DNA of 64,000 nucleotides from Candidatus Poribacteria bacterium (GTDB lineage Bacteria > Poribacteria > WGA-4E > WGA-3G): NCBI GenBank assembly GCA_026706025.1, contig JAPOZO010000052.1:48337-112336 (forward strand). The letters run 5' to 3'. Within the stretch, counting starts at the first letter, position 1, and each line of letters starts with the position of its first letter. Below are positions 2,363 through 63,333 of the stretch, in pieces. Below the pieces are notes generated by a model. It was not told where the DNA came from, did not search any database, and worked only from the letters and a program-made list of their open reading frames with translations. A program made the position numbers and the translations under genes.

Positions 2363-3004
2363 ATGGATACCATTTCATGGTGGGGCATGCTTGGTCTCGG
2401 CGCATTTCACGGTATTAATCCAGGGATGGGTTGGCTTTTTGCTGTTGCTTTAGGCATGCAGGAAAAACGGAGAAGCGCCGTTATCGGTGCGCTCTTTCCG
2501 ATGGCACTTGGACACGCGCTATCCATTGCCGTTGTCGTATTCGTTATCGCCTTAGCACAGCGACAGCTGCCGGAGGGTGTGCTTCGCATTGCTTGTGCAA
2601 CTGTGTTGTTTGGTTTTGGCGTGTACAAATTTTTTAGTGCTCGACATCCGAAATGGGTCGGTATGCGTGTTAACTTCAAGGACTTAACGATCTGGTCCTT
2701 TCTGATGGCTTCCGCGCACGGTGCAGGTTTGATGCTGGCACCGCTTTTGTTACGGATGCCTGCTGCTGAGGCTTCAGGGCACATGCACCACGCACCCGCA
2801 AGCATGACGGATAACACAGTGATGTTACTGTCTGCCGTTGGGGTACATACCCTCAGTTTTTTTCTCGTGATGGGGGTTGTGGCGGTTATCGTCTATGAGG
2901 TGGTAGGACTCGCGTTGCTCCGCAAGGCGTGGTTTAATCTGGATCTGCTGTGGTCTATCGCTTTGATGATTGCTGGTATTGTTACCCTTTTCTTGAAGCA
3001 TTAG
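2363..3004 (+). CDS. Polytopic membrane protein, possible HupE/UreJ-like metal transporter
   Basis: About 6 predicted TM segments. Internally repeated FHGxNPG / SAHGAG histidine motifs and a His-rich loop (SGHMHHAP). Family assignment is tentative. Confidence 0.3.
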   Translation: MDTISWWGMLGLGAFHGINPGMGWLFAVALGMQEKRRSAVIGALFPMALGHALSIAVVVFVIALAQRQLPEGVLRIACATVLFGFGVYKFFSARHPKWVGMRVNFKDLTIWSFLMASAHGAGLMLAPLLLRMPAAEASGHMHHAPASMTDNTVMLLSAVGVHTLSFFLVMGVVAVIVYEVVGLALLRKAWFNLDLLWSIALMIAGIVTLFLKH

Positions 3005-3207
3005 AAGAAACTGCGTGTTTTTCGTTTGGGACGTTATATTTAGAGAGGCTCACTCTTCATTTTGCTTTATTTTTTTTCTCAAAAATCACAATTGCGCTGG
3101 TTGAATCTCCAAAAGCTGCAGATGGTATAACAATCTCGCAGAGTCGCCAACCTTCGCTTCCTTCGCGATTAAGCGTCATTTCAAGGGCCGGAATTGATCG
3201 GGAAACA

Positions 3208-3291: not shown

Positions 3292-3879
3292 TTATATGCC
3301 TTCTTGATTCACCACAAGTTCTGTCCATGCCTGATTAATCGCTGCTTGGACATGGTTAGTTTCCACAAACGGAATTCCTAACTTAAAACATTCCGCTTGG
3401 ATCTCACGACTTTCCTTCTGATACCGGATAATTAGATTCCCTAATTCATAGTCTGAGAGAGATGTTGTCCAATGATCTATTCGGGTATATGTCCGTATTT
3501 CAGTGATTTTTGCCTCAACATTGACATCCACGTAACCCAAAAACACGCACTTAAAGCCTTCTTTATGAAGAACAGAGGCGGTTTTGGGGGATATATGATA
3601 CCCTTCTATGACAAAATTCAAACCTTCATATTTTGTATGTCGTGCCAATGCTTGGGTAAATGTTGAAAGTTTTTCACAAACGATTCGCGGGTTTGACGTA
3701 AAATGCGTGATATCAAGTTGCGGGAACGCGTCGTGCATTGAAGAGACGATTGCGTCCAAAGGGAAAATTGACGCTCCAAGTTTGTCTCGCAACTTTTTTG
3801 AAAGGCTTGACTTTCCAGATTGGGGTACACCACCGATAATAAAACAACACTGGTTTATTGCAGACATACATTCTTCCAT
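3292..3879 (-). CDS. P-loop kinase-like protein (chloramphenicol-phosphotransferase-like/AAA fold)
   Basis: N-terminal Walker A motif IIGGVPQSGKSSL. Small size and overall pattern resemble CPT/zeta-toxin-like kinases. Low GC. Confidence 0.4.
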   Translation of the reverse strand: MEECMSAINQCCFIIGGVPQSGKSSLSKKLRDKLGASIFPLDAIVSSMHDAFPQLDITHFTSNPRIVCEKLSTFTQALARHTKYEGLNFVIEGYHISPKTASVLHKEGFKCVFLGYVDVNVEAKITEIRTYTRIDHWTTSLSDYELGNLIIRYQKESREIQAECFKLGIPFVETNHVQAAINQAWTELVVNQEGI

Positions 3880-3896
3880 GTGGTATAACTGTCTTG

Positions 3897-4283
3897 TTAA
3901 ACCTTGATTTTATACTTTAGATCATTGGCTTCATCGCCTGTTATACCGCGAAAACCCCAGCAATGCGGTGGTTGCTCTTTTATCGTGATTTCAACATCTA
4001 TCGGGGAAATGGACAGTTGACTTTCTATCTCTTTGAAAAGCGTTTTGATAAGGGATTTTTGGGTTTCCACTTGACGACCTGCCATCATATTGATTTCAAT
4101 GACAGTATACGCATCAGTCCGACCGCCGGGATAGTAGAAATCTTCTTTCGCCATAGGCACAAAGCGGTGTGCTCGCTTGTCCTCTGGCATCCCAAGTACA
4201 GATTGCATACAGTCGTGGATTACGTCTGATAATTGTGCCTTTATCGGATTCAACTTTTCTTTGATGCCGTATACGATGATCAT
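3897..4283 (-). CDS. Tautomerase-family protein
   Basis: About 128 aa with the features of the tautomerase_2 family. 4-bp overlap with the downstream gene suggests an operon. Confidence 0.4.
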   Translation of the reverse strand: MIIVYGIKEKLNPIKAQLSDVIHDCMQSVLGMPEDKRAHRFVPMAKEDFYYPGGRTDAYTVIEINMMAGRQVETQKSLIKTLFKEIESQLSISPIDVEITIKEQPPHCWGFRGITGDEANDLKYKIKV

Positions 4284-7396: not shown

Positions 7397-9490
7397 ATGA
7401 AAAAATGTTTGTCTTTACCTCTTATCGCGTTAGCACTTCTCACAATGTGTATATGCGTCGGCTGTGGCGCGAAAGAAGTACCTCCAGCTACGACTTCAGC
7501 AGCTGCCGAATCGGCACCGGTACAGGAATCGCAAGAAATGGACGAGCTGCCTCAATCTGCGGAAGAGGCATCAGAACATGAGTCTGCCGAAGAAGCATCA
7601 GAACATGAATCCGAAGAAGAAACGTCAGAACACGAAACTGACGCGGAACATGAGCCTGCCGAAGAAGCATCAGAACATGAATCCGAAGAGAAAACGGCAG
7701 AACATGAGACTGACGCGGAAACATCGCATGAAACTGAACCTGAAATGGTGGAGATTCCGAACGGTAGTGTGTTACATCTGATTCCAAAACAAACAATAGG
7801 GCTTATCTATTGTCCGAGTTTGCTGGAGTTGGATTATCGGATTAACACACTGGTGACAGACTTGGTCCCAACAGATGAAACCCCAGAAATTCTTGCCGAA
7901 ATCTTAGCAGATGCCTTTGGAGCTGGGTTTGAAAGTCTCGCTGAGTTAGAGGAAATTGGACTTGATTTGAACCAAGACTTTGCGATCTTCACGACCTCTT
8001 TGAATCCGCCGCAACTTTCTGCGACTGTTCATCTAACAGATCCTGCAGCCATGAAACAGGTCATTGATGCTGAAAGTGCAGGAAGTGCCCCGGTTGAATA
8101 TAACGGTGTAACTTATTGGAACGCAAGCGGTGGCGGCGGTAGTTTCGCTATCTTGGACAATACGCTTGTCTTTTCTCAATCCGCTGAAGTGTGCGAAAGT
8201 GCTATTGATACCTATAAGGGAGCCGAACAATCTGTCGCAGCCAACCCAAGCTACACTTCATTTTTCACCGATATTATGGAGGGCGACGCGCAGATCGCAG
8301 CACATTTCAACCTTGAATCCATTGCTCCGCTGCTGACTGCTCCGATTAAGGAAGAATCAGAATCAATGCGCGACGGTCTTGAAAGCGACCCTGCCGCTAT
8401 GGCGTTTGCTCCGTTCCTTACGTCTATGTTTGATTCAGTCGTAAATGTAATTGAGCAGTTGGAATCTCTAAGCGCGACGCTTGAAGTGAAGGGGACCGAT
8501 GTACAACTTGCCCCGACCTTAAAATTCAAGAACGATAGCGAAATTCAGCGATCCTTGGCAGAGATGATGCCTGACGAATTGGCAGTTCTCAGCGATCTTC
8601 CAAATCTCGCTTTTGTAAATGGCGCCTTTCAAGGGAATACACAATTACTGCTTGACATGAACATGTTATGGCTAAAAATGTTTTCAGCAAGTGCTCCAGA
8701 GCAGCAAGCGAAATTGGAGGCACTCACCGAGCAGATGACAACTTTCTATAAATCTCTCGCCGATGAGTGGGGGTTCACTGTCAATTTTGGCGATAGCATT
8801 ATCCCGGATTATCTGATCGTCTATGAGATGAAGGATAAACAACTGGCGGAAACTTACATGAATGACATGTTTCTTGAACAACTCCGCAACACAATGCAGA
8901 TCATGCAGGAAATGATTGGAAATATGCCACAATTAGGCATGTACGATGGGGCACATGCTGGTCAACCGCTGATGCACAACGACGTTGAAATAAAAAGTTA
9001 TATCTTCCCCAACTTCGGTTCGGTTTTTGGTGAGATGCCACCTGAAGCTGCTGTAATGATACCTCAGGAATGGCACTGGTACTATGCCTTTCACGAAGAT
9101 CAACTGTTTTTTGCTATCGGTGGTTCTGATCTGCTTAAAGCCGCATTGGATAGGAAAGCTGGAATGGGTGAAAGCCTTTCTGAAAATGCAAGTTACCAGA
9201 AACTGACGGGTACGTTGGGGACAGACAATAACCTGCTTTTGGCTCTTTCCCCGATGACTATGGTTAAAGGTCTCATGCCTATTGTTGCGAAAGCCGACCC
9301 GAATGCTGGCGCAGCCATGCAAATGTTCGCAGGCATGTTTATGAATGTGCCTGAGACTTACAGCATCGGTTTTTCTGCTAAAGTCCAAGAGGATGGCGGA
9401 ATCGGCGCAAACCTGCTTCTCACCCTCGGCGACTTCAAGCAGGCCATCCAAATGATTCTGATGATGCAGAATATGCAACAGATGCAATAG
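7397..9490 (+). CDS. Lipoprotein with acidic tandem-repeat region, unknown function
   Basis: Signal peptide with a Cys-rich lipobox region (LTMCICVGC). Repeats of SAEEASEHES/EEETSEHETDAEHEP are encoded by 66-nt tandem units around 7594-7722. SD GAGGAG. Confidence 0.6.
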   Translation: MKKCLSLPLIALALLTMCICVGCGAKEVPPATTSAAAESAPVQESQEMDELPQSAEEASEHESAEEASEHESEEETSEHETDAEHEPAEEASEHESEEKTAEHETDAETSHETEPEMVEIPNGSVLHLIPKQTIGLIYCPSLLELDYRINTLVTDLVPTDETPEILAEILADAFGAGFESLAELEEIGLDLNQDFAIFTTSLNPPQLSATVHLTDPAAMKQVIDAESAGSAPVEYNGVTYWNASGGGGSFAILDNTLVFSQSAEVCESAIDTYKGAEQSVAANPSYTSFFTDIMEGDAQIAAHFNLESIAPLLTAPIKEESESMRDGLESDPAAMAFAPFLTSMFDSVVNVIEQLESLSATLEVKGTDVQLAPTLKFKNDSEIQRSLAEMMPDELAVLSDLPNLAFVNGAFQGNTQLLLDMNMLWLKMFSASAPEQQAKLEALTEQMTTFYKSLADEWGFTVNFGDSIIPDYLIVYEMKDKQLAETYMNDMFLEQLRNTMQIMQEMIGNMPQLGMYDGAHAGQPLMHNDVEIKSYIFPNFGSVFGEMPPEAAVMIPQEWHWYYAFHEDQLFFAIGGSDLLKAALDRKAGMGESLSENASYQKLTGTLGTDNNLLLALSPMTMVKGLMPIVAKADPNAGAAMQMFAGMFMNVPETYSIGFSAKVQEDGGIGANLLLTLGDFKQAIQMILMMQNMQQMQ

Positions 9491-9538: not shown

Positions 9539-10078
9539 CAGGGTGTCAACTTGTGTTTTCTTTTCTATTAAGTCTTCCGAAAATAGCGGCGAATCACAAA
9601 GAGTTTTATTACGACATTTATATATTTTTATTTTATTGTGAAAAAATATGACCTAACATAACTGATGTTTAAACCCTGATGACTATTGACTTTATATCAA
9701 TTTAAAATTTGACAAAAAATGAGATTTTGATAATATATATTTATAACTTTTGTGAAAATATGAAGTTTGTGAACGTTTCACAACGGATATTTTCCAGCGC
9801 GAATTTGCCACAGAATTTTTTAGAACCTATTCGCATCTGGCATCTTATATTGAACTCACGCTATAATAGGACTTACGCAAAATCAGAGAATTATGCCTAT
9901 GGCGCCGCGGTAGGTGGGGTTAGGAATGCAAATCGCAAATGTAAAGCATTCTGACTGCGAAGCAAAATTTGGTCTCCGTGTGTAGAAAACCAAATGTGGG
10001 TGCGTACACCGCAAAACCGCACCTACCAGGGAATTGCGTAAGCCCTAACTTAATTACCGACTTAAGGGGGAAGAACTG

Positions 10079-11387: not shown

Positions 11388-11480
11388 TAGTTGTCAGTCG
11401 TCAGTTTTCAGTTTTCAGTTAAGCGGCAGATTGTTCCTGATAATCCCCTTAACTCTCACTGCGAGGCAAACTGACAACTC
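11388..11480. repeat. Family A heptad element copy 2
   Basis: GTCAGTCGTCAGTTTTCAGTTTTCAGTT ... CTTAACTCTCACTGCGAGGCAAACTGACAACTC. Confidence 0.8.
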
Positions 11481-11497: not shown

Positions 11498-13126
11498 TTG
11501 AAAATGCACGAAGAAGGAAAACAACCGCAACATATGAGGGAAAGGGAATATAGGAAATTATTCGGTTTAGAGATTTACTTAACGCCTGTATTCGTGATTT
11601 CCAGTATCGCTATTGTTGTCTTTATTATCGGGTCTCTTATTTTCCAAGAAGGTGCGACCAAACTCTTTGGGGGTCTTCGGGTTTGGCTCACCACGAACCT
11701 TGATTGGCTGTTCATGATCTCTACCAACCTTGTTTTTCTTTTCTGTCTGGTCGTGGCGTTTTCTCCACTCGGAAAAGTGCGTCTCGGAGGCACAGACGCA
11801 AAACCCGAATACTCTTACCTAACTTGGCTTGCTATGATCTTTGCAGCAGGCGTGGGCATTGGGCTCCTCTTCTTTGGCGTTTCGGAGCCGGTTACGTATT
11901 TTCAGGGTGGTAGTTATTCGCCGCTGGGGACAGAAACGGTTTATGACCCAGGGACGGAATACAATGCCGGAAATGTCCCCGATGCGGGGGATCCCAAGGT
12001 TCAAGCGGCGGCTTCCTTGGGTATAGCGACGACGGTTTTCCACTGGGGACTGCAAGGGTGGGCGATCTACGGTGTTGTTGGACTTGCCCTCGCATTTTTC
12101 GCCTATAACCGGGGTTTACCGCTCCTGATCCGATCTGCTTTTTATCCGATATTCGGTGACCGGATATGGGGGTGGCCTGGACACATCATTGACACGTTCG
12201 CTATATTCGCTGGTATCTTTGGACTAGCGACCTCGCTCGGTTTAGGGGTCCAGCAGGTGACCTCCGGTCTTAACCATCTGTTTGGAATACCAGTGGCCCC
12301 TGTCACCATGGTTCTCCTAATTGTCGTGATCACCTCCATCGCGCTGATCTCAGTGATGACAGGTATTAATGTCGGTATCAAACGTCTCAGTCAATTTAAT
12401 ATAATTCTCGCCTTTTTATTACTGGCGGCTATTATCCTTCTCGGGCCAACGCTCTACATTCTTCGGACGCTTTTTACCGGACTTGGCACCTATGTTATGA
12501 AGATTATTCCGCTCAGCAACTGGATTGGGCGTGAAGATACTGGATTCTTCCACGATTGGACGACGTTCTACTGGGCATGGTGGATCGCGTGGGCACCGTT
12601 CATCGGCACCTTCATTGCTCGGATTTCAAAGGGACGCACAGTTCGTGAGTTTGTCATCTTCGTTCTTCTGCTACCGACGCTGTTATGCTTAATCTGGTTT
12701 AGTGCTTTTGGTGGCACTGCTATCCACCAGTTCCTCGCTGAAGGTTACACGGGTGTAACCGAAAATGTTGAGACATATACTTACGAACTTGCCCTATTCA
12801 AAATGTTTGAAGGACTTCCGTGGACAACGCTGCTCTCCTGCGTCGCTATGACGTTAACAATCATTTTTTTCGTTACGTCGTCGGACTCCGGTTCTCTGAT
12901 TATTGACATCATCGCGGCGGGTGGCAAGGTTGACGCGCCGGTACCGCAACGTGTGTTCTGGTGTACTGTGGAAGGTTTAGTCGCTATCGCACTCTTACTT
13001 GGCGGAGGGCTGAAAGCATTACAAGCCGCTTCGCTCGCGACGGGCTTTCCGTTCGCGATTGTGATTTTAGGTATGGGTATCTGTGTCTGGATCGGGCTTA
13101 GTAAAGAGGCCCGTCAATCTGAATAG
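11498..13126 (+). CDS. BCCT-family (betaine/carnitine/choline) transporter
   Basis: 12-TM protein with the BCCT signature region WGLQGWAIYGVVGLALAFFAYNRGLPLLIRSAFYPIFGDRIWGWPGHIID. Confidence 0.85.
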   Translation: MKMHEEGKQPQHMREREYRKLFGLEIYLTPVFVISSIAIVVFIIGSLIFQEGATKLFGGLRVWLTTNLDWLFMISTNLVFLFCLVVAFSPLGKVRLGGTDAKPEYSYLTWLAMIFAAGVGIGLLFFGVSEPVTYFQGGSYSPLGTETVYDPGTEYNAGNVPDAGDPKVQAAASLGIATTVFHWGLQGWAIYGVVGLALAFFAYNRGLPLLIRSAFYPIFGDRIWGWPGHIIDTFAIFAGIFGLATSLGLGVQQVTSGLNHLFGIPVAPVTMVLLIVVITSIALISVMTGINVGIKRLSQFNIILAFLLLAAIILLGPTLYILRTLFTGLGTYVMKIIPLSNWIGREDTGFFHDWTTFYWAWWIAWAPFIGTFIARISKGRTVREFVIFVLLLPTLLCLIWFSAFGGTAIHQFLAEGYTGVTENVETYTYELALFKMFEGLPWTTLLSCVAMTLTIIFFVTSSDSGSLIIDIIAAGGKVDAPVPQRVFWCTVEGLVAIALLLGGGLKALQAASLATGFPFAIVILGMGICVWIGLSKEARQSE

Positions 13127-13245
13127 CAATCGGCTGTCAGCAATCGGCAGTCGGAAGAATAGTTGTCGGTTCTCGGCGCGCGGTTAAGAGGTTTGCTTGC
13201 GTCAAGCATCTCTTAACCAACCGTCGAAAGCCGAAAGCTGAAAGC
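13127..13245. repeat. Family A-related element copy 3 (GTCAG / CTGAAAG heptad variants around the GGTTAAGAGG...CTCTTAACC core)
   Basis: CAATCGGCTGTCAGCAATCGGCAGTCGG ... GTTAAGAGGTTTGCTTGCGTCAAGCATCTCTTAAC ... CGAAAGCCGAAAGCTGAAAGCC. Abuts the accA start, which has no SD. Confidence 0.65.
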
Positions 13246-15374: not shown

Positions 15375-15395
15375 ACGGCCCCGCCACAGACTCCA

Positions 15396-15430
15396 CTACT
15401 GACAACTGATGACTGAAAACTGACAACTCC
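15396..15430. repeat. Family A right-arm fragment (CTACTGACAACTGATGACTGAAAACTGACAACTCC)
   Basis: Five consecutive AACTGNC-type heptads. The left arm is absent. Confidence 0.6.
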
Positions 15431-19518: not shown

Positions 19519-19618
19519 CCGCGAAATTTATACCAAGATGGCTGTCGGCGGTCCGAAAGAAAACTCCGGCGGTTTTCGATAACCAGTCCACTGATAGCCA
19601 ATACACGGAGATTCATAT

Positions 19619-20687: not shown

Positions 20688-20790
20688 TAGTTATCAGTTG
20701 TCAGTTGTCGGTTGGTTATTCGGAACTATTAGTGAAAAGGTTTTACCTTATCCAACCACCTCTTAACCGACTACCGATCGCCATTTTGAA
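20688..20790. repeat. Family A heptad element copy 5
   Basis: TTAGTTATCAGTTGTCAGTTGTCGGTTGG ... GTGAAAAGGTTTTACC ... CCTCTTAACCGACTACCGATCG. Confidence 0.7.
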
Positions 20791-31842: not shown

Positions 31843-33096
31843 ATGAATAAATTATTAGGTGAAGTTGACCCACAGATCGTTGAGATCGCCGCCAAAGACC
31901 TAACACGCCAACAAGATTCCCTCATGTTAATCCCCTCGGAGAACTATGCCAGCCGTGCCGTTATGGAAGCTCAAAGCAGCATTCTCGCTAACAAATATGC
32001 TGAGGGCTATCCGGGTGAGCGTTACTATAACGGATGCCGGTATATGGACGATGTTGAATCCCTCGCGATTGAACGCGCGAAGGCTCTTTTCGGGGTTGAG
32101 CACGTCAACGTCCAACCGCACGCCGGTAGCCAAGCGAATATGGCAGCCTACCATGCGCTGCTTGAACCCGGTGATACGATTCTCGGCATGTCGCTCAGTC
32201 AAGGTGGGCATCTCACGCACGGTGCTAACGTCAACTTTTCAGGAAATCTTTACAATATAGCTGCTTATGGTGTAGATGCTGAGACCGAGCGTATTGACAT
32301 GGAAGAAATCGCGCGGCTCGCAGAACAGCATCGTCCCAAACTCATCGTTGTTGGCGCGACAGCCTATCCCCGGCACTTTGACTTTGCGGCGTGGCGACAG
32401 GTTGCCGATGCCGTAGGCGCGTATCTCCTTGCAGATATAGCACATATTGCAGGACTCATCGCAGGCGGCGTTCATCCAGATCCCGTTCCTTATGCCGATG
32501 TGATTACGACAACAACACACAAAACCTTACGCGGGCCTCGCGGGGCAATGATTATGTGTAAAGCCGAGTATGCAGACAAGATTGACCGTGCTGTATTTCC
32601 CGGTTTACAAGGCGGTCCCTTCCTCCATACGATTGCTGCCAGAGCCGTTGCATTCAAAGAGGCAAGCGAACCCGACTTTAAAATATATCAAGCGCAGATT
32701 GTTAAAAATGCCAAGGCACTTGCCGCGCGGTTAATCGAAAACGGGTTCCGACTGGTGAGCGGCGGAACTGACAATCATCTCATGCTGATGGATCTCACCA
32801 CGAAATATGAGAAATTGAGTGGACGACAAGCCGCCGATCACTTAGAAGATGCTGGGATTATTGTAAACAAAAATACAATTCCGTTCGACAAAAGGAAACC
32901 GAGAACGACAAGCGGTTTACGTATCGGTACTCCGATGATTACAACGCGCGGCATGAAAGAGGATGATATGGTTCAAGTCGCCGATTTTATTACAGAGACG
33001 CTTGAGAACAGGCAGAAAGCCGCCATCAAACGCCAGGTGCGGGCGAAAGTCAAGGAACTCTGCACACAATTCCCGATTTATGAATATTTAGAGTAG
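31843..33096 (+). CDS. glyA: Serine hydroxymethyltransferase
   Basis: Full-length match, including the PLP-binding region [13 protein letters not shown]. Confidence 0.95.
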
Positions 33097-33254
33097 TTAT
33101 CGGTTGTCAGTTTTCAGAGGAATAGTTGTCAGTCATCAGACCGCTTCGCTTTCAGTTTTCAGTCAAGAGGGTCCGCGTAGCAGCTACAATGAACTGGACT
33201 GCCATAGGTGATTAACTGACGACTCTCACTGCGAGGCAAACTGAAAACTAACAA
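33095..33254. repeat. Family A heptad element copy 6 (largest; intercistronic glyA-folC)
   Basis: TAGTTATCGGTTGTCAGTTTTCAG ... TAGTTGTCAGTCATCAG ... TTTCAGTTTTCAGTCAAGAGG ... TTAACTGACGACTCTCACTGCGAGGCAAACTGAAAACTAACAACT. Runs to within 2 nt of the folC ATG, which has no SD. Confidence 0.85.
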
Positions 33255-33256
33255 CT

Positions 33257-34627
33257 ATGAATTACGAAGCGGCACTCGCCTATATTGAAGCGTTTATTGA
33301 CTATGAAAGAAGCCCTGATTTTTCACGACAGGCGCGGCTCTACAATCTTAACCGAATTTCTCTGTTGCTGAAACGACTCGGCAATCCACACGATAAATTG
33401 CGGGTTATCCACATTGCGGGTAGCAAAGGGAAAGGTTCTACCGCCGCACTCGTTGCCTCTGCTCTTACACACGCTGGCTATAAAACCGGTTTGTTTACAT
33501 CGCCGCATCTCATTACGCCCCGAGAACGATGCCGTATTGATGGGGAGCCAATTTCAGAGGCAGACGTTGGTTTCTATATTGATAGGATGAAACCTACGAT
33601 CGAAACCGTTTCCGCTTCCGAATTCGGACGTGTCTCGTTTTTTGAAATATACACCGCGCTCGCTTTTACCTATTTTGCCGACAAAGCGACTGATTTCGCT
33701 GTTATTGAAGTCGGCTTAGGTGGGAGACTTGATGCAACTAACGTTGTTAAACCCGTCGCGACTGTTATCACGCCGATTGGTTTAGAGCATACGGCAATAT
33801 TAGGGGAAACATACAGCGAGATAGCAGCTGAGAAAGCGGAGATCATCAAAGACGGATGTCCGCTCGCACTCGCGCCACAACATCCGGAAGCGCGGGCGGT
33901 GTTTGAAAAAGTTGCAAATGAACGGAACGCATTGATTGTTGAAACTAAAATCCATGACGCAGCTTCCCAACTCGTCGAGAATGTCGATGGTTTACCTGTC
34001 GCACAACGATTTGATGTGGAAACAGATTTTGAAAGTTATTCACAACTCACAATACCGCTACTTGGGCACCATCAGTTTGTGAATGCAACAACTGCTATCG
34101 CAGCGATTGAATGCCTGAAACAGAAAGGATATACAATTCCGAAAAATAGTATTTATGCCGGATTCAAGAATGTGCAATGGCACGGACGCATCCAACGGAT
34201 TATGTCTGCCCCACTTGTCGTATTGGATGGTGCGCATTCCGCTGTCTCAATGGAGGCACTCTGCTTGACGCTCCGTGAGAGTTTTCGTTACACTCGGGCG
34301 ATTTTTATCGTTAGTTTAATGAAAGATAAAAACCTTAAAGCAATTGGGGATATTGTCTCTAAAACCGCAGACACCGTGATTGCGACGCAAGTTTCTGAGA
34401 ATCCGCGTGTGATGGCGGCTGAAGCAATACAGGCTGTATGGTCTGGTACGTGTCAGAAAATTACAATATGCCCAAAGCCAGAAAAAGCAATCGCCAGGGC
34501 GTTAGCATCCGCATCGCCGACGGACCTGATCTGCATTACGGGTTCACTCTACCTTGTCGGTCAGGCACTTAAAATATTTAAATCAAATTTTTCAGCGAAA
34601 GATCGTATTGGAATTCCTCTTTCTTAG
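33257..34627 (+). CDS. folC: Folylpolyglutamate synthase/dihydrofolate synthase
   Basis: Mur-ligase P-loop IHIAGSKGKGST plus a Mur ligase C-terminal domain. Confidence 0.85.
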   Translation: MNYEAALAYIEAFIDYERSPDFSRQARLYNLNRISLLLKRLGNPHDKLRVIHIAGSKGKGSTAALVASALTHAGYKTGLFTSPHLITPRERCRIDGEPISEADVGFYIDRMKPTIETVSASEFGRVSFFEIYTALAFTYFADKATDFAVIEVGLGGRLDATNVVKPVATVITPIGLEHTAILGETYSEIAAEKAEIIKDGCPLALAPQHPEARAVFEKVANERNALIVETKIHDAASQLVENVDGLPVAQRFDVETDFESYSQLTIPLLGHHQFVNATTAIAAIECLKQKGYTIPKNSIYAGFKNVQWHGRIQRIMSAPLVVLDGAHSAVSMEALCLTLRESFRYTRAIFIVSLMKDKNLKAIGDIVSKTADTVIATQVSENPRVMAAEAIQAVWSGTCQKITICPKPEKAIARALASASPTDLICITGSLYLVGQALKIFKSNFSAKDRIGIPLS

Positions 34628-34641
34628 CGAAAGATCGTAAG

Positions 34642-34775
34642 TCCGTAATGAAGCAGATCGCTTATGGGGTTTTTGCTTGGGGCTTCTTCAAGTACGCCGC
34701 AAAATGGAGGGCGGCTCTACGGAAAGGAACTCCAATGCTCAAACCCACTTTATTGAACCGCAAGGAAAATTAAAA
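34642..34775 (+). promoter_or_regulatory. Conserved leader motif (family C) upstream of hppA
   Basis: Blocks CCGTAATGAAGCAGATCGCTTATGGG / GTACGCCGCAAAATGGAGGGCGG / CAAACCCACTTTATTGAACCGCAAGGAAAATTAAAAA, near-identical to 42328-42442. Confidence 0.55.
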
Positions 34776-34795
34776 AAGAAAAAGAGAGGTTTTAA

Positions 34796-42266: not shown

Positions 42267-42327
42267 GAAAAAGGAGGCGGCGTCCCTCCGCTTCCGCCAC
42301 ACCTACGAAGTTTTAATGCGCGCATAG

Positions 42328-42442
42328 CCCGTAATGAAGCAGATCGCTTATGGGCGAGTACGCCGCAAAATGGAGGGCGGATAGAGGGAGAAGAACGTCA
42401 AAGGTCAAACCCACTTCAACGAACCGCAAGGAAAATTAAAAA
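42328..42442 (+). promoter_or_regulatory. Conserved leader motif (family C) upstream of the lactonase gene
   Basis: Same three blocks as 34642-34775, ending 1 nt before the ATG. Confidence 0.55.
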
Positions 42443-42443
42443 T

Positions 42444-45063: not shown

Positions 45064-45215
45064 GTGTTACCTTTCCTTTGATGACGAACCACCGACTGCT
45101 GACTGCCGATAGGAACCGATAGCCAAGAAACTGAGATTGACAAATGGGTTTCTTGGTGGTATAATTTTTAGCAATGAGTCAATGCTACCTGAACTGGAAT
45201 CTGAAAAGGAATACG

Positions 45216-51107: not shown

Positions 51108-51223
51108 CTTGCCATAACAACTTTTGGGTGTCGTAGGGGTAGGCGCGAGCAGCGTTCAAACCTACCCTCTACTTCCCAAAGGACCTGCTATCTGTCGGAA
51201 TGGTCTACCAGATCAATTTTTCT

Positions 51224-51251
51224 TGACATCTCTCTTGAAATGTGTTATACT
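51224..51251 (+). promoter_or_regulatory. Sigma70-like promoter with extended -10 (TTGACA-16-TGtTATACT) driving the ilvB leader
   Basis: Consensus -35 at 51224-51229; TG-extended -10 at 51243-51251. Confidence 0.55.
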
Positions 51252-51339
51252 TAAAATACAAAAGATAATTCTTTTTAGCATACCCGTGAAACTTCATAAA
51301 ATGGTGTGCGTAATTAACATCTAAATAGTTACCCAAAAA

Positions 51340-51601
51340 GCGTTGAAGGGGAGGAGTAAGTCGCCCGGGCTTGCAAGAGATGGAGACTCATCGGCTGAAA
51401 GGTCTCCTCAAGTTACCACGACTGAAGGTCGCCCTGGAGCTGCTAATCTGAACACATATCAGTAGGATTAGTCGGTCCGATGCCCGTTATCGTATCCCAA
51501 AGAGTGCTCTTTCTCATAAGAGAAAGGGAATTGGAGTGGTACCACGGTAAGGTCAGTATTATGTCCTTCTCGTCTCCATGTTTGGAACGAGAAGGTTTTT
51601 T
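51340..51601 (+). promoter_or_regulatory. T-box riboswitch leader with intrinsic terminator, upstream of ilvB
   Basis: Stem I region with an AGAGA motif (51376-51380). T-box sequence AATTGGAGTGGTACCACGG (51529-51547) matches the consensus AATTAGGGTGGTACCGCGG at 15 of 19 positions. Terminator CCTTCTCGT...ACGAGAAGG + TTTTTT at 51565-51601, 55 nt before the ilvB ATG. Confidence 0.6.
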
Positions 51602-51654: not shown

Positions 51655-53331
51655 ATGGAACTTTCAGGAGCACAAATCCTGGTTGATGGTCTCAAGCGGG
51701 AAGGTGTCGAATATATCTTCGGTGTCAACGGTGGCGCAGCGATGCCGATTTTTGATGCCTTGTACGGCGAGACCGAAATCAAATTGATTCCGATGCGGCA
51801 TGAACAAGGGGCTTCCCACGCCGCTGATGGCTACGCACGCGCCACCGGGAAGGTCGGTGTTGCACTCGCAACCTCCGGTCCCGGCGCTACCAATCTCGTC
51901 ACCGGTATCGCTACTGCCTATATGGACTCCATTCCGATGGTCGCGATTACTGGTCAGGTTTTCACGCACTATATCGGCAGTGATGCTTTCCAAGAATGCG
52001 ATGTTATCGGCGTGACACGCCCGATCTGTAAGCACAGTTACCTCATTACAAGCAGTGACGAAATCGCAGATGTTGTCGCTGAAGCGTTTCACATCGCGAA
52101 AACAGGGAAACCGGGTCCTGTTATTATTGACATCGCCAAAGATGCGCAGATACATGAAGCCCTGTTTCAGTATCCAGAAACGGTTGACATCCGTAGCTAC
52201 AAACCTCAAGTTCATGGCGATCCGGTACAAATTGCCAAGGCGGCGGCACTGATAAAAGAAGCCAAACGCCCTATGCTTTATGCCGGCGGCGGTGTAGTCC
52301 TTGCGAATGCCAGCGAAGAACTACGGCAGCTGACCTTGAATACACAGATCCCGATTACCGTTACCTTGATGGGACTTGGCGCGTTCCCTGAGACGCATCC
52401 GTTAGCAATGGAGATGCCCGGCATGCACGGCTCCTGTTGCGCAAATTATGCCTTCACCGATTCAGACTTGGTTATCGCTATTGGTGCGAGATTTGACGAC
52501 CGCGTTACCGGGGATCTCAGTAAATTCGCACCTAACGCCAAGAAGATCCACATTGATATAGACGCGTCTTGTATTGGGAAAAACGTCCCTGTTGATGTCC
52601 CGATCGTTGGCGATGCGAAAAGCGTCCTGACGGAACTCAACAAACAGGTCGGTACAGCGGATATCGACCCGTGGCGCGCCCAGATTCAGGAGTGGAAGCA
52701 GAAATACCCATTTGAATACGATCAAAAATCGGATATAGTCATGCCGCAATTTGTTATTGAAAAAATATATGAGCATTACAGTGATGCCATCGTTGTTGCG
52801 GATGTCGGACAACACCAGATGTGGGCAGCGCAGTACTTCAAATTCACTGAACCTCGACAGTGGCTTAATTCTGGAGGGCTTGGCACGATGGGCTTTAGCC
52901 TACCCGCCGCAATCGGTGCGCAGCTCGGATGTCCAGACAAAACCGTCGTCAATATCAACGGGGACGGGTCCTATATCATGACGATCCAAGAACTGGTCCC
53001 AGCGGTTACCATGAAGCTGCCGCTTAAGGTCTTCATCATTAACAATATGTACCTCGGAATGGTACGCCAGTGGCAGGAATTGTTCCACGGCAAACGTTAT
53101 TCCGCTGTTGATTACCACGACAACCCTGATTTCGCCTTGCTCGCACAAGCGTTCGGTGCCACGGGCTTGCGGGTCGAACACCCTGAAGATGTCGAACCCG
53201 CATTACAGAAGGCAAAAGGGATTACCGACGGTCCTGTGGTCATTGACTTTATTGTTGATGAAGAAGAGAACGTGTTCCCGATGGTGCCAGCCGGTAAAGG
53301 GCTTGGAGATGTTATTCGCGGGTTATCTTAA
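51655..53331 (+). CDS. ilvB: Acetolactate synthase large subunit
   Basis: ThDP-enzyme blocks, including GDG(S/A)...NN region IINNMYLGMVRQWQ. Confidence 0.9.
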   Translation: MELSGAQILVDGLKREGVEYIFGVNGGAAMPIFDALYGETEIKLIPMRHEQGASHAADGYARATGKVGVALATSGPGATNLVTGIATAYMDSIPMVAITGQVFTHYIGSDAFQECDVIGVTRPICKHSYLITSSDEIADVVAEAFHIAKTGKPGPVIIDIAKDAQIHEALFQYPETVDIRSYKPQVHGDPVQIAKAAALIKEAKRPMLYAGGGVVLANASEELRQLTLNTQIPITVTLMGLGAFPETHPLAMEMPGMHGSCCANYAFTDSDLVIAIGARFDDRVTGDLSKFAPNAKKIHIDIDASCIGKNVPVDVPIVGDAKSVLTELNKQVGTADIDPWRAQIQEWKQKYPFEYDQKSDIVMPQFVIEKIYEHYSDAIVVADVGQHQMWAAQYFKFTEPRQWLNSGGLGTMGFSLPAAIGAQLGCPDKTVVNINGDGSYIMTIQELVPAVTMKLPLKVFIINNMYLGMVRQWQELFHGKRYSAVDYHDNPDFALLAQAFGATGLRVEHPEDVEPALQKAKGITDGPVVIDFIVDEEENVFPMVPAGKGLGDVIRGLS

Positions 53332-53340
53332 CGATTTTAA

Positions 53341-53500
53341 GGGTTGTCAGTTTTAAGAGTTATCAGTTTTCAGTTAAGACCCTGTGTCGAGAACATTTTC
53401 TGTCGCTGTCACAAGATACCTCTTTAACTGACGACTGATAACTATTCCCTCTGATAACTGACGACTGAAAGGGTTGCGTAGCAACCCGCACTGAAAACTA
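53341..53500. repeat. Family A heptad element copy 8 (intercistronic ilvB-ilvN)
   Basis: GGTTGTCAGTTTTAAGAGTTATCAGTTTTCAGTTAAGACC ... CTCTTTAACTGACGACTGATAACT ... CTGATAACTGACGACTGAAAG ... CACTGAAAACT. Ends 8 nt before the ilvN ATG. Confidence 0.85.
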
Positions 53501-53507
53501 TAAAAAA

Positions 53508-54008
53508 ATGAATTCAGAAGAACGACATATCTTTTCCGTTTTAGTCGAAAACCGATTCGGAGTCCTTGCACGCGTTGCGGGGCTCTTTAGCGGGCGCGGC
53601 TTTAATATCGACAGTCTCAACGTCGCTGAGACACATGACAAAAGCATCTCGCATATAACTCTTGTCACACACGGTGACGCGCAAATTATGGAACAGATCT
53701 ACCAGCATCTAAACAGACTCATCGACGTTATTGAGGTGACCGACCTTTCCGCTGCTGGAACGCATGTTGAGCGAGAACTTGTTCTTATTAAAATTGCTAC
53801 CGATGATCCTCAAAAACGCACCGAGATTCTACAAGTCGCGGAGGTTTTTCGTGGGCGGGTCATAGATATGAAGCCTGCCTCCCTTGTGCTTGAAATTACC
53901 GGTGATGAAGGTAAATTGAAAGCGGCAATTGATATTTTCAATACGTACGGTATCCTTGAGCTGACACGCACCGGCAAAATAGCGATGTTACGCGGCTCCG
54001 AGAAATAG
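53508..54008 (+). CDS. ilvN: Acetolactate synthase small (regulatory) subunit
   Basis: ACT-domain N-terminus LVENRFGVLARVAGLFSGRGFNIDSL typical of IlvH/IlvN. Confidence 0.85.
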   Translation: MNSEERHIFSVLVENRFGVLARVAGLFSGRGFNIDSLNVAETHDKSISHITLVTHGDAQIMEQIYQHLNRLIDVIEVTDLSAAGTHVERELVLIKIATDDPQKRTEILQVAEVFRGRVIDMKPASLVLEITGDEGKLKAAIDIFNTYGILELTRTGKIAMLRGSEK

Positions 54009-54011
54009 GAT

Positions 54012-54140
54012 ATGGTTGTCGGTACGTTCCGCTGCGCTCCACTTTCAGCTATAGGTTATCAGTTGAATGTGTGGCGGGTGAAAAGGTTTAACCTGCTACA
54101 AACGAGTTACTGACAACTGGCAACTGACAACTGATAACTT
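54012..54140. repeat. Family A heptad element copy 9 (intercistronic ilvN-ilvC)
   Basis: GGTTGTCGGT ... CAGCTATAGGTTATCAGTTG ... GTGAAAAGGTTTAACC ... GTTACTGACAACTGGCAACTGACAACTGATAACTT. Confidence 0.8.
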
Positions 54141-54157
54141 AAAAAGGAATAGACTTT

Positions 54158-55150
54158 ATGGCAACGATTTATTACGATAGTGATGCTAATTTTGACTTAC
54201 TGAAAGAGCGTACCGTCGCTGTTGTTGGCTATGGTGCGCAAGGACGTGCACAGTCGCTAAATCTCAAAGACAGCGGTGCAAACGTGATCGTCGCATTATA
54301 CGAAGGCAGCCGTTCAAAAGCCCGTGCAGAAGCGGAAGGTCTGACTGTCAAGAACGTTGAAGAAGCCGCAGCAATGGCAGACATCGTCCAAGTTCTCATA
54401 CCTGACGAACGCCACGCCGCTGTCTATCGCGACCAGATTGCCCCTAACATGGAAGCAGGCAATATGCTCCTCGTCTCACACGGGTTTAGCGTCCACTTTG
54501 GGCAGATTGTACCTGCCAGCGACATTGATGTCGCAATGATTGCGCCTAAGGGCCCCGGTTCCCTCGTTCGTGAAGTGTTTGAAGGCGGTGGTGGTGTGCC
54601 GTGCCTTATCGCCATCCATCAAGACACCACAGGTCTCGCGCGCGATGTCGCACTCGCTTATGCAAGAGGTATCGGCGGCACACGTGCTGGGGTCATTGAA
54701 ACGACGTTCCGCGAGGAGACCGAAACCGATCTCTTCGGTGAGCAAGCCGTGTTGTGTGGCGGAACCGCTGCCCTCATCAAAGCCGCCTTTGATACACTCG
54801 TTGAAGCCGGTTATCAACCGGAAATGGCTTATTTTGAATGCCTCCACGAGTTGAAATTGATTGTTGACCTGATCTATACGGGTGGGTTGAGCAAGATGCG
54901 GAACGATGTCAGCAACACCGCCGAATACGGTGATCTAACACGCGGTCCTCAACTCATTGACGATAGTGTCCGGGACAAGATGCGCCAAATCTTGAAAGAC
55001 GTTCAAGGCGGTGTCTTTGCACGTGAATGGGTTTTGGAAAATGAGGCGAACCAACCCGTGTTAGGCGCGCTCCGCCGACAAGAGGCGGAACTTGAGATCG
55101 AAGAAGTCGGAAAAAATCTCCGTAGCATGATGAGTTGGCTTGATGAATAG
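54158..55150 (+). CDS. ilvC: Ketol-acid reductoisomerase
   Basis: [21 protein letters not shown] Rossmann motif and the KARI C-terminal knotted domain. Confidence 0.95.
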
Positions 55151-55238
55151 CCGCTCCTTTCGGTAATTGTGGTAGGTGCGGTTTTGCGGTGTACCATAGG
55201 TGTCAATTTAGTAGATTTTCAGTGGTTTTCTCTTGAAG

Positions 55239-55490
55239 TCCCGTAGGTTGGGTTGAACGGCGTTGAGAAGTGGACTGTTGACAGGTCAAACACCCCTGAA
55301 AGTCAATATCCGACCACATCTATTCGTGAACGTAGTGAAACCCAACTTTACGCTGTCAGCCCCGCGGAACCTTCAAATCAAAAGCGTTGGGTTTCACTCG
55401 GTCTCTGATGGGTGTGGTGTATCTGGAACAAGTTGTGTTTTCTATGATTTTCGGGTTTTTAGTGGCATCCGTTCAACCCAACCTACGGGA
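55239..55490. mobile_element. MITE-like 252-bp element with 22-bp perfect terminal inverted repeats and a nested 13-bp inverted repeat
   Basis: Terminal inverted repeats TCCCGTAGGTTGGGTTGAACGG (55239-55260) and CCGTTCAACCCAACCTACGGGA (55469-55490). Inner repeats AGTGAAACCCAAC (55334-55346) and GTTGGGTTTCACT (55386-55398). No transposase gene and no clear target-site duplication. Confidence 0.5.
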
Positions 55491-55520
55491 CGATACTTGG
55501 GTATTTCTGCGGATTTCTTC

Positions 55521-55553
55521 GCGTACACCGCAGAATTGCCCTACTACAAACGG
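55521..55553. repeat. GCGTACACCGCAGAATTGCCCTACTACAAAC repeat module (second copy at 63287-63317)
   Basis: 29 of 31 nt identical between the two copies. The GCGTACACCGCA submodule also occurs at 10003-10014 and as GGTAGGTGCGGTTTTGCGGTGTAC at 55171-55194. Confidence 0.7.
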
Positions 55554-55640
55554 TCAGGTTCGTAGTAGTGCGATTCATCGCACGTTCCGACATTACCGAA
55601 TTAATAAATTAATCCTCATCCAACCGCACCGCAATAGTAA

Positions 55641-59116: not shown

Positions 59117-59240
59117 AGGTTATAAGTTTTCAGTTTCCAGTCTTCGGTCTTCAGTTACAAACGGTTACCCGTAAATGAACACGCTCTTAACTGATAAATC
59201 TCACTGCGATGCAAACTGATGACTGATAACTTCTCTAACT
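59117..59240. repeat. Family A heptad element copy 10
   Basis: GGTTATAAGTTTTCAGTTTCCAGTCTTCGGTCTTCAGTTAC ... CTCTTAACTGATAAATCTCACTGCGATGCAAACTGATGACTGATAACTTCTCTAACTGAA. Confidence 0.8.
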
Positions 59241-59458
59241 GAATGCCCAGAGCCATTCAATTCTCCATTTTCCGAGCGAATCTTCACCGCCAGGCCCGGT
59301 AGGTGCGGTTTCCGAACCGCACCGGATCTTGGAAAAAAGACGTGAAACCCCATAATTTCTTAAAATTGAATGGCTCTGCTGAATGCCTAATATATTATAC
59401 CATTTTAGTTGAGTTTGTGGTAGAATGAAATCAGAATTTTGATAAGAGGCAACTAACA

Positions 59459-60307: not shown

Positions 60308-60497
60308 TCCAAGATAACAGACGAGTAGTCTGTCCAGTCTAAAATTGGGAATAATCCCGCTCGTAGTAGGGCAATTCATTGCCCGTTCCTAAGCATCGGA
60401 CGTGCGATAAATCGCACTACTACGAACTAATCCACCTACAATTCAAAGATAGACAGACTACGAGGTAGACGAAATCGTAATATTTTAATTGCCAACA

Positions 60498-63246: not shown

Positions 63247-63333
63247 CCCCCCATATCCCCCCTTATCAGGGGGGCAGGGGGTAGGCGAGTACGCCGCAGA
63301 ATTGCCCTACTACAAACAATTCAGAGTTATCCA

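Follow-up and report, generated by a model that had tools for sequence, protein, structure and literature searches.

What is the sequence that fills the gap between glyA and folC in a Candidatus Poribacteria bacterium, how did it come to lie there, and how do the two genes live with it? The DNA analysed here (the window) is a stretch of 64,000 nucleotides from contig JAPOZO010000052.1 of assembly GCA_026706025.1, and the element in question, at window positions 33094-33256, occupies exactly the gap from the glyA stop codon to the folC ATG. It consists of tandem heptads of the CAGTTNT type arranged as two inverted arms, and an earlier description made from the letters of the window alone (the original prediction) had listed it as one of at least nine copies of an unnamed intergenic element. 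The elements disperse in both orientations, are gained and lost among relatives, nest within one another, keep a fixed polarity of their arms, are constrained in sequence, and are placed inside an operon. To account for this we favor, with about even confidence for and against, a phylum-wide, non-autonomous, modular foldback mobile repeat that is co-transcribed with its neighbors and loops itself out of the mRNA.

The heptad arrays are far too frequent in the window to be coincidental. The sequence CAGTTNTCAGTTNT, with at most one mismatch, occurs at 21 sites where 0.38 are expected, a count reached by none of 100 shuffles, and arrays are about 144 times as dense as in 711 kb of DNA from unrelated bacteria. 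Tandem Repeats Finder places period-7 arrays at 682, 787, 11389, 15398, 20689, 53358, and 54109, and 12 of the 13 arrays with at least three units are intergenic in a window of which 12.5% is intergenic (p = 1.7e-10). The claim of an abundant, non-coding, intergenic element with inverted heptad arrays is borne out. To look beyond the window, a scan for the 20-nt core CTCACTGCGAKGCAAACTGA was run over bacteria and archaea, each species being represented by one genome. The exact core was found in at least 120 stretches from at least 31 species-level assemblies; among the matches listed, every named assembly is a Candidatus Poribacteria one, and two carry just the title 'uncultured bacterium'. 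On this evidence the family is phylum-wide in Candidatus Poribacteria, to which the window itself belongs because its part from 57.9 to 64 kb is 88-96% identical over 6 kb to the Poribacteria metagenome-assembled genome IRC4_bin_27 (locus L044). The analyses below use 120 Poribacteria loci pooled with the window (954 kb in total), with gene positions taken from simple open reading frame (ORF) calls.

Across the pooled loci, the heptad has the consensus C-A-G-T-T-N-T (most commonly CAGTTAT, CAGTTAA, CAGTTGT, or CAGTTTT), each array holds three to six units, and the element as a whole is about 60-250 nt long (median 122 nt) with no ORF. The arms follow the order left (TCAGTTN) then right (NAACTGA) 88 times and the reverse order twice (p = 7e-24), with left and right arrays about equal in number (101 vs 87); because either strand shows this order, it belongs to the element itself, whichever way the element points. 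The layout runs from a terminus AATAGTT through (TCAGTTN)n, CAGTTAAGAGG, a loop, CCTCTTAACTG, and (NAACTGA)n to a terminus AACTATT, where the ends are tendencies. An AAGAGG/CCTCTT core lies at the inner ends of the arms, and the loops are drawn from a few families. Two modules can be added to this plan. Module A, CTCACTGCGAGGCA, is a 14-nt array insert that may stand in either arm and lies in both orientations relative to the flanking genes (47 vs 35). Module B is a small hairpin of the form CTGAAAG-stem-loop-stem-CGTACTG with a perfect stem of 5-8 bp (39 instances, 28 of them distinct), in which four of the seven stem pairs covary and one-sided (G·U) changes are seen at no pair. Module A has been inserted in the loop of module B twice, and a junction, CAGAGGAATAGTT, together with its complement marks stacked or nested units.

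Short tandem arrays could also be nothing but simple-sequence repeats that change in place by replication slippage, without unit identity or function. Of 11 indels between orthologous copies, three measure 7 nt exactly, the array lengths of the two arms are uncorrelated, and the arrays are short (three to six units), all as slippage would have it; Mrazek (2007), moreover, reportedly found heptanucleotide repeats to be the most abundant class in most genomes. Slippage, however, cannot yield an 88:2 inverted order, conserved termini and inner cores, loops shared by unrelated loci, or a 20-nt module identical throughout a phylum. We regard it as very improbable and as largely refuted by the phylum-wide core, the arm order, and the shared interiors described below.

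The copy between glyA and folC is made up as follows:

31843-33096: glyA, serine hydroxymethyltransferase gene, whose stop codon is the first TAG of the left-arm heptads
33094-33114: outer left arm, three heptads TAGTTAT CGGTTGT CAGTTTT, forming inverted-repeat pairs I2 and I3 with 33238-33257
33115-33127: junction CAGAGGAATAGTT, an inner-core-like AGAGG and then the terminus motif AATAGTT, marking a stacked or nested second unit
33123-33139: inner unit, left heptads TAGTTGT CAGTCAT CAG (inverted-repeat pairs I1 and I7)
33140-33151: non-heptad insert ACCGCTTCGCTT within the left arm, part-complementary to the right-arm module A (pair I1)
33152-33170: inner left heptads TCAGTTT TCAGTCA and inner core AGAGG (pairs I4 and I5)
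33171-33211: loop, of the family ...ACTGGACTGCCAYARGGTGA
33212-33224: inner right arm TTAACTGAC GACT (pairs I6 and I7)
33225-33238, plus strand: module A, CTCACTGCGAGGCA, a 14-nt insert (two heptad lengths) in the right array
33239-33256: outer right arm AACTGAA AACTAAC AACT, abutting the folC ATG
33257: ATG of folC, the folylpolyglutamate synthase gene

Several of these parts recur elsewhere. The junction CAGAGGAATAGTT and its complement AACTATTCCTCTG are also present in the window copy at 53341-53500 and at loci L008, L067, and L068; inserts resembling ACCGCTTCGCTT are present in the window copy at 54012-54140 and at L014 and L025; and the loop family (ACTGGACTGCCAYARGGTGA) recurs in other Poribacteria at other loci, L105 and L012. 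The copy allows several alternative pairing registers, and its predicted RNA folding is weaker than that of the cleanest copy, copy 1 below (z = -1.7 on the plus strand and -3.6 on the minus strand). No strain variation was seen at this locus, the two other assemblies with the same glyA being identical to the window.

How, then, did such a unit arrive between these two genes? The history of the gap indicates gain or loss. In relatives whose GlyA proteins are 91%, 88%, and 72% identical, and whose DNA is about 80% identical along 20 kb of syntenic sequence, nothing but a plain spacer of 45-150 nt separates glyA from folC, and no heptad arrays occur in the 72 kb examined from them. A cleaner case is found at loci L067 and L073, which hold a 135-nt unit missing from the orthologous L064. 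The boundaries of the unit lie exactly at the termini, and the empty site in L064 reads GAATAGTCAT directly joined to AAACTATTC, one heptad from either side. The interiors carry a record of dispersal: once heptads and module A are masked, a match to the interior of some non-orthologous element remains for 46 of 85 interiors (shuffles give 0-2), with 35 matches in minus and 25 in plus orientation. Elsewhere turnover affects the contents of a site. Loci L072 and L096 have flanks that are 93.6% identical and interiors that are rearranged, and at other orthologous sites too an element is always present with different modules (for example L029, L036, and L081).

The placement of the elements relative to genes suggests how they may be tolerated. 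About 119 of 129 core sites are intergenic, with 82 between co-directional genes, 18 in divergent gaps, and four in convergent gaps. The element starts about 5-7 nt past the upstream stop codon and ends about 20 nt before the downstream start codon; the distance from the last heptad to the start codon has a median of 22 nt and is at most 12 nt in 25 of 93 cases. All but one of these 25 close starts are without a Shine-Dalgarno-like motif, among them folC, whose start codon directly follows the right arm. Two window copies, numbered 7 and 8 below, lie inside the ilvB-ilvN-ilvC operon (51655-55150), behind a near-consensus promoter and a T-box leader. The region at 51223-51580 carries TTGACA-17-TATACT with an upstream TG and then the T-box leader (RF00230, 113.7 bits). 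Neither copy contains a promoter-like or terminator-like site, so polycistronic transcription is indicated and the copies are not efficient terminators; both are very probably transcribed within the polycistronic mRNA, to judge from the sequence. An intrinsic terminator is rejected for the element on the further ground that its stems are A/T-rich and followed by A-rich sequence.

A mechanism that would join these observations begins with spread as DNA, through machinery that recognizes hairpins or heptads. The inserted elements would then be co-transcribed with the flanking genes, and the transcript would fold back, loop the insert out, and bring the upstream stop codon beside the downstream start codon, which would explain why an element can be tolerated even in an operon, for example between ilvB and ilvN. 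The 3' arm may double as a stop-rich, A/U-rich TAACTGA leader like those of Beggiatoaceae, and in about a quarter of cases it is this leader alone that precedes the start codon. A heptad- or hairpin-recognizing factor would move or maintain the elements.

The same placement can be turned around, since what is tolerated by the host may instead be used by it. The element could be a cis-acting RNA of the host, acting between cistrons as a signal for processing or stability, much as an RNase III site does, or as a translational coupling device in which a ribosome ending at the upstream stop codon melts the base of the hairpin and exposes the TAACTGA leader and the next start. In favor of this, elements span from stop codon to ribosome site, including inside ilvBNC, many start codons lie close to the hairpin base without a Shine-Dalgarno sequence (27% within 12 nt), folding z-scores are low (down to -7), and orthologous sites keep an element though its content changes; the same layout between phage genes, conservation above that of the flanks, and the translational role proposed for forward TAACTGA arrays (MacGregor, 2015) point the same way. 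Several results speak against such a function. Close relatives express glyA-folC without the element, 10-14% of copies are in divergent gaps where there is no upstream gene to couple, and module A lies in both orientations to transcription. Selection on an RNA should also leave a wobble bias on the sense strand, and there is none in the pooled elements (150 G·U vs 168 A·C, p = 0.34); nor do the arms covary, as described next. We consider a host RNA device a possibility to be taken seriously, if a rather unlikely one.

What selection does see appears to be the sequence of the heptads. Between orthologous elements divergence is 4.7%, compared with 8.4% in the mostly coding flanks (p = 6e-5). Arm-to-arm covariation is absent, with a mean pairing score of 39.2 for real elements and 40.4 for chimeras, and the minor heptad variants (CGGTT, CAGTC) are unmatched between arms except at position 4. 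Because wobble bias, covariation, and variant matching are all lacking and divergence is nevertheless low, the constraint lies on heptad and module sequence, with no particular base pairs singled out. Arms pair with one another generically, and heptads held in this way suggest recognition by something that acts in trans, be it a mobilizer or a host protein. The heptad iterons had looked like protein-binding sites to the original prediction, an idea with which this constraint would agree. Binding by a protein leads to an alternative at the level of DNA, in which heptads and module A are iterated sites on DNA for a protein such as a nucleoid component, a regulator, or a factor of uptake or recombination, and the inverted layout reflects binding geometry and not hairpin formation. 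Such recognition would account for a heptad consensus that is held while the arms do not covary, for exact conservation of the 20-nt module A in at least 31 genomes, for strand-symmetric mismatches, for module B stems made of Watson-Crick pairs only, and for the occurrence of the heptamer in both orientations in cyanobacterial plasmids and phage Mic1. It leaves unexplained the recurrent loop families, nested modules, and empty sites, as well as the tight stop-to-start fit and near absence from convergent gaps, and no candidate protein was identified. We think this alternative quite unlikely.

Within the window, all nine places listed in the original prediction hold the sequence described. Apart from the copy between glyA and folC (copy 6), they are:

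682-831: copy 1, the cleanest foldback, with five left and six right heptads and core GTTAAAGAGG...CTTCTTAAC; folding z -6.7 / -4.6; neighbors are an unannotated ORF and an SBP56-family gene
11388-11480: copy 2, five left heptads, module A at 11455-11474, and a short right arm, upstream of a BCCT-family transporter gene
13127-13245: copy 3, variant heptads (CGGCAGT / CGGTT type) around GTTAAGAGG...CTCTTAAC; folding z -5.7 / -7.2; flanked by the BCCT-family transporter gene and accA
15395-15429: copy 4, a lone right-type array of five heptads without a left partner
20688-20790: copy 5, four left heptads, CCTCTTAAC, and a degenerate right arm, upstream of a gamma-glutamyltranspeptidase gene
53341-53500: copy 7, a stacked foldback with a small perfect hairpin GGGTTGCGTAGCAACCC, between ilvB and ilvN; folding z -5.4; a start codon lies 9 nt past the final heptad
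54012-54140: copy 8, a degenerate left arm and five right heptads, between ilvN and ilvC
59117-59240: copy 9, in a divergent gap, with a module A variant (G to T) at 59200-59219

Two further degenerate relatives lie at about 19540-19600 and at 45087-45135. Copy 1 and locus L100 have loops that are reverse complements of each other, and copy 9 is kept at the orthologous site of IRC4_bin_27. The two-arm architecture attributed to every copy holds for eight of the nine, with degenerate arms in copy 3 and on the right side of copy 5, and fails for the lone array of copy 4. The long imperfect hairpin that had been proposed is borne out by a folding check, if unevenly: z-scores range from -0.5 to -7.2 across copies, on either strand, and in the cleanest copy (679-851) 6-bp helices are broken by single mismatches at the variable heptad position. 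The conserved cores said to be common to all copies were not found to be so. Exact GTTAAGAGG and exact CCTCTTAAC occur once each, the remaining copies holding variants; CTCACTGCGA(G/T)GCAAACTGA is present in three copies (at 11455, 33225, and 59200); and the two supposed cores are separable modules, CTCACTGCGAGGCA being found in either arm and in both orientations. The exclusion of clustered regularly interspaced short palindromic repeats (CRISPR) stands, given a period of 7 nt, no spacers, and at most six units, and a tRNA explanation was also rejected.

Is the element new? In Rfam it has no family: at gathering thresholds the T-box leader is the one family detected in the window, and when the focal copy, copy 7, and copy 8 were scanned permissively, a single weak match without meaning came back. 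To this extent the element is unnamed, as had been supposed, but the heptad itself is the TAACTGA heptamer (MacGregor, 2015; PMC4679880) and cannot be called unrecognized. A BLAST comparison of copy 1 with plasmids and phages likewise matched only heptad arrays of the known type, in Microcystis, Nostoc, Fischerella, Planktothrix, Brasilonema, and Bernardetia plasmids and in Microcystis phage Mic1. The published repeats are abundant direct repeats of TAACTGA between genes of marine Beggiatoaceae, Thiocystis, 15 Cyanobacteria, and five Bacteroidetes, in arrays of two to six copies often split by related 7-mers; most are 'forward', a few nucleotides from a start codon and usually without a ribosome-binding site, and a translational role was proposed, not tested, with function left unexplained (MacGregor, 2015). 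The Poribacteria elements share with them the heptamer (TAACTGA/TCAGTTA), short interspersed arrays, and an intergenic site upstream of starts that often lack a Shine-Dalgarno sequence. They differ in three respects. First, inverted pairs are exceptional in the Orange Guaymas 'Maribeggiatoa' (BOGUAY), with one among 170 sets and 147 forward vs 12 reverse arrays (MacGregor, 2015), whereas the arms in Poribacteria are paired in a fixed foldback order. Second, the Poribacteria elements add termini, the AAGAGG/CCTCTT core, loop families, and modules A and B. Third, Poribacteria are not among the reported host groups, and in the literature searched no paper links them with such repeats. By sequence, intergenic site, and proximity to start codons the element can be placed within the TAACTGA phenomenon, although its arrays are not the lone direct ones typical of it.

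Several other repeat systems bear comparison in kind. The very small hairpin repeats of Nostoc called SDR, reportedly described by Elhai and colleagues in 2008, are reported to lie in tandem heptamer (STRR) arrays of cyanobacteria, to be nested, and to show compensatory changes in the small hairpins, with no known mobilizer; module B, and module A nested in it, look like repeats of this sort. The sequences and host phylum differ, and a foldback of inverted arrays reaching from stop to start is not known to have been described there. Neisseria Correia/NEMIS and enterobacterial ERIC-type elements are short inverted-repeat elements with hundreds of gene-adjacent copies that are co-transcribed and form RNase-processed hairpins in mRNA. 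Correia elements are marked by unique 26-bp terminal repeats together with a TA duplication. With these the analogy is one of working, without sequence relation: the arms here are variable tandem heptads, and no duplication is seen at the one clean junction. The REP/BIME/REPIN repeats are RAYT-mobilized intergenic palindromes of 20-40 nt with a GTAG-type head, found in mosaic clusters without target duplication. Like them, the Poribacteria elements are abundant intergenic palindromes with constrained hairpins and fast structural turnover at orthologous sites; assignment to this class was rejected, as the heptad arms have no GTAG head and no heptad-flanked RAYT or transposase was found in about 950 kb. 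Eukaryotic Foldback (FB) transposons, which are kilobase-scale and have long inverted arms of variable-number tandem short repeats around a variable loop, offer an architectural analogy only, being a different system. The CAGTT/AACTG sequence may also resemble Myb-like or Tc1-like motifs, a likeness on which nothing here rests. A further comparison is with miniature inverted-repeat transposable elements (MITEs). The elements are short and non-coding, have inverted arms with AATAGTT/AACTATT termini, share dispersed interiors, and have empty sites (at glyA-folC and L064); no autonomous transposase element with the same ends was found in about 950 kb. The original prediction had set against its own claim the case that copies might be remnants of such a family, and the data suggest that this comes near the truth.

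The heptad foldback is not confined to cellular genomes. Module A has no matches in viral contigs, and 111 stretches of these contigs hold arrays with four or more NAACTGA units; neighboring arrays are in left-then-right order nine times and in the reverse order once. IMG/VR contig 3300031520_000176 (L225), which is phage-like and encodes a head-protease fusion, a tail protein, and a holin, has foldbacks between genes at 2840-3038, 3867-3949, and 12348-12603 with the same layout of stop to left arm and right arm to ribosome site; in one of them (CAGTTGC)x17 faces (AACTGGC/AACTGAC)n. Microcystis phage Mic1 (L315, MN013189, 59820-60200) carries a direct array of 17 TCAGTTA units running from the gp57 stop codon to the gp58 ribosome site and a 4-unit array after gp58, both without an inverted partner and unannotated; by BLAST there are 13 such places in this phage. 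A wider reading of these distributions is that heptad-armed foldbacks form a class of mobile element, so far unrecognized, in bacteria and phages alike: an insert between cistrons that loops itself out, its hairpin modules and heptad units being moved and regenerated by machinery that acts on single-stranded DNA or on hairpins. The same process would lie behind the heptamer arrays, TAACTGA and others, that are found in Cyanobacteria, Beggiatoaceae, and Bacteroidetes and in the phages of these groups, with phages as the vehicle for patchy spread across phyla. We offer this tentatively and think it rather unlikely.

For the mobile foldback in Poribacteria, the following points weigh against the reading we favor. 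At the only clean filled/empty junction (TAGTCAT before the unit, AAACTATT after it) neither a target-site duplication nor a direct repeat is visible; the junction, a single pair, might be read as TA...TA with a footprint of 9 nt, though this is not demonstrable from it. In about 950 kb of DNA from Poribacteria, no autonomous partner or heptad-flanked transposase was found. The genes enclosed by the four left-right pairs that stand 0.7-4 kb apart are ordinary ones (PhyH-like, beta-propeller-like, and ilvN), and a TnpB gene fragment in a Poribacteria chromosome, at L036 1-555 (OrfB_IS605 / Cas12f-like TNB domain), is followed by 450 nt without heptads. The arms of an element pair with each other no better than with foreign arms, the real element outscoring each of its six chimeras in 11 of 76 cases, as often as chance alone would give; copying as a perfect palindrome is therefore unsupported, and the heptad counts of the two arms are likewise uncorrelated (rho 0.11). 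Elements are better conserved than coding flanks, unlike junk, which does not suit a simple selfish repeat, and they are kept at orthologous sites whose flanks are only about 78-82% identical, as if the site may need one. Foldbacks are found in a phage-like contig, where dead weight is unexpected. Finally, the Poribacteria loci were gathered via module A, which biases the sample to elements that carry it. Because of the missing duplication and partner, the high conservation, the persistence, and the occurrence in phage, the host RNA device and the DNA-binding array both stay alive as alternatives to the mobile foldback. A screen for multi-copy ORFs returned a DUF6785 membrane-protein family and one TnpB, neither of them heptad-flanked. 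Paralogous DUF6785 and DUF6784 membrane proteins (about 630-690 aa) adjoin module A in about nine of the 120 loci (for example L024 2329-4225, L070 1172-3116, and L109 2147-4214), an adjacency that may reflect merely a large paralog family.

Several other repeats share the intergenic space of the window. A classical MITE insertion (59239-59387) has 15-bp terminal inverted repeats CAGAGCCATTCAATT / AATTGAATGGCTCTG (59248-59378) and a 9-bp target duplication CTGAATGCC; the orthologous site in IRC4_bin_27 is without that MITE and has a single CTGAATGCC. GTAG-headed REP/REPIN-like palindromes, for example cgtagtagggcaattcattgcccgttcc ... ggacgtgcgataaatcgcactactacg, at 55151-55640 and 60308-60497 form a second, unrelated intergenic repeat family. 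A repeat of about 150 nt, GTAATGAAGCAGATCGCTTATGGG ... TACGCCGCAAAATGGAGGGCGG ... GAACCGCAAGGAAAATTAAAAA, lies in the gaps 34628-34795 and 42267-42443, just upstream of the next gene, with related pieces, TACGCCGCAGAATTGCCCTACTACAAA, at about 55530 and 63290. Palindromes of the GGTAGGTGCGGTTTTGCGGTGTAC type are a dispersed family (about 10020-10050, 55175-55200, and 59325-59350), one of them inside the MITE at 59248-59378. A C-run/G-run palindrome, CCCCCCATATCCCCCCTTATCAGGGGGGCAGGGGG, fills 63247-63285 in a short gap between two minus-strand ORFs. Within coding sequence, tandem repeats of 27 and 72 nt at 7554-7723 are in frame in a 697-aa ORF (7397-9490) and probably encode an acidic repeat region.

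Tandem heptamer arrays beside start codons have, to our knowledge, been familiar for decades in cyanobacteria and giant sulfur bacteria, and we know of no accepted function or origin for them. What is new here is the Poribacteria host, the fixed foldback order, a modular grammar, and a span from stop codon to ribosome site that is kept even in the T-box-controlled ilvBNC operon. The Poribacteria version is informative because it has arm polarity, termini, loops and modules, filled and empty sites, and constraint on sequence without constraint on pairing, a grammar that lets a loosely defined repeat be cast in models open to test, whether as a mobile foldback, as an RNA device between cistrons, or as an array bound by protein. 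For the annotation of these genomes it matters that short-read assemblies break at the elements, and that stop codons and the contexts of start codons can come from them. If the copies are indeed co-transcribed operon hairpins, they would shape gene expression genome-wide in a dominant uncultured symbiont of sponges.

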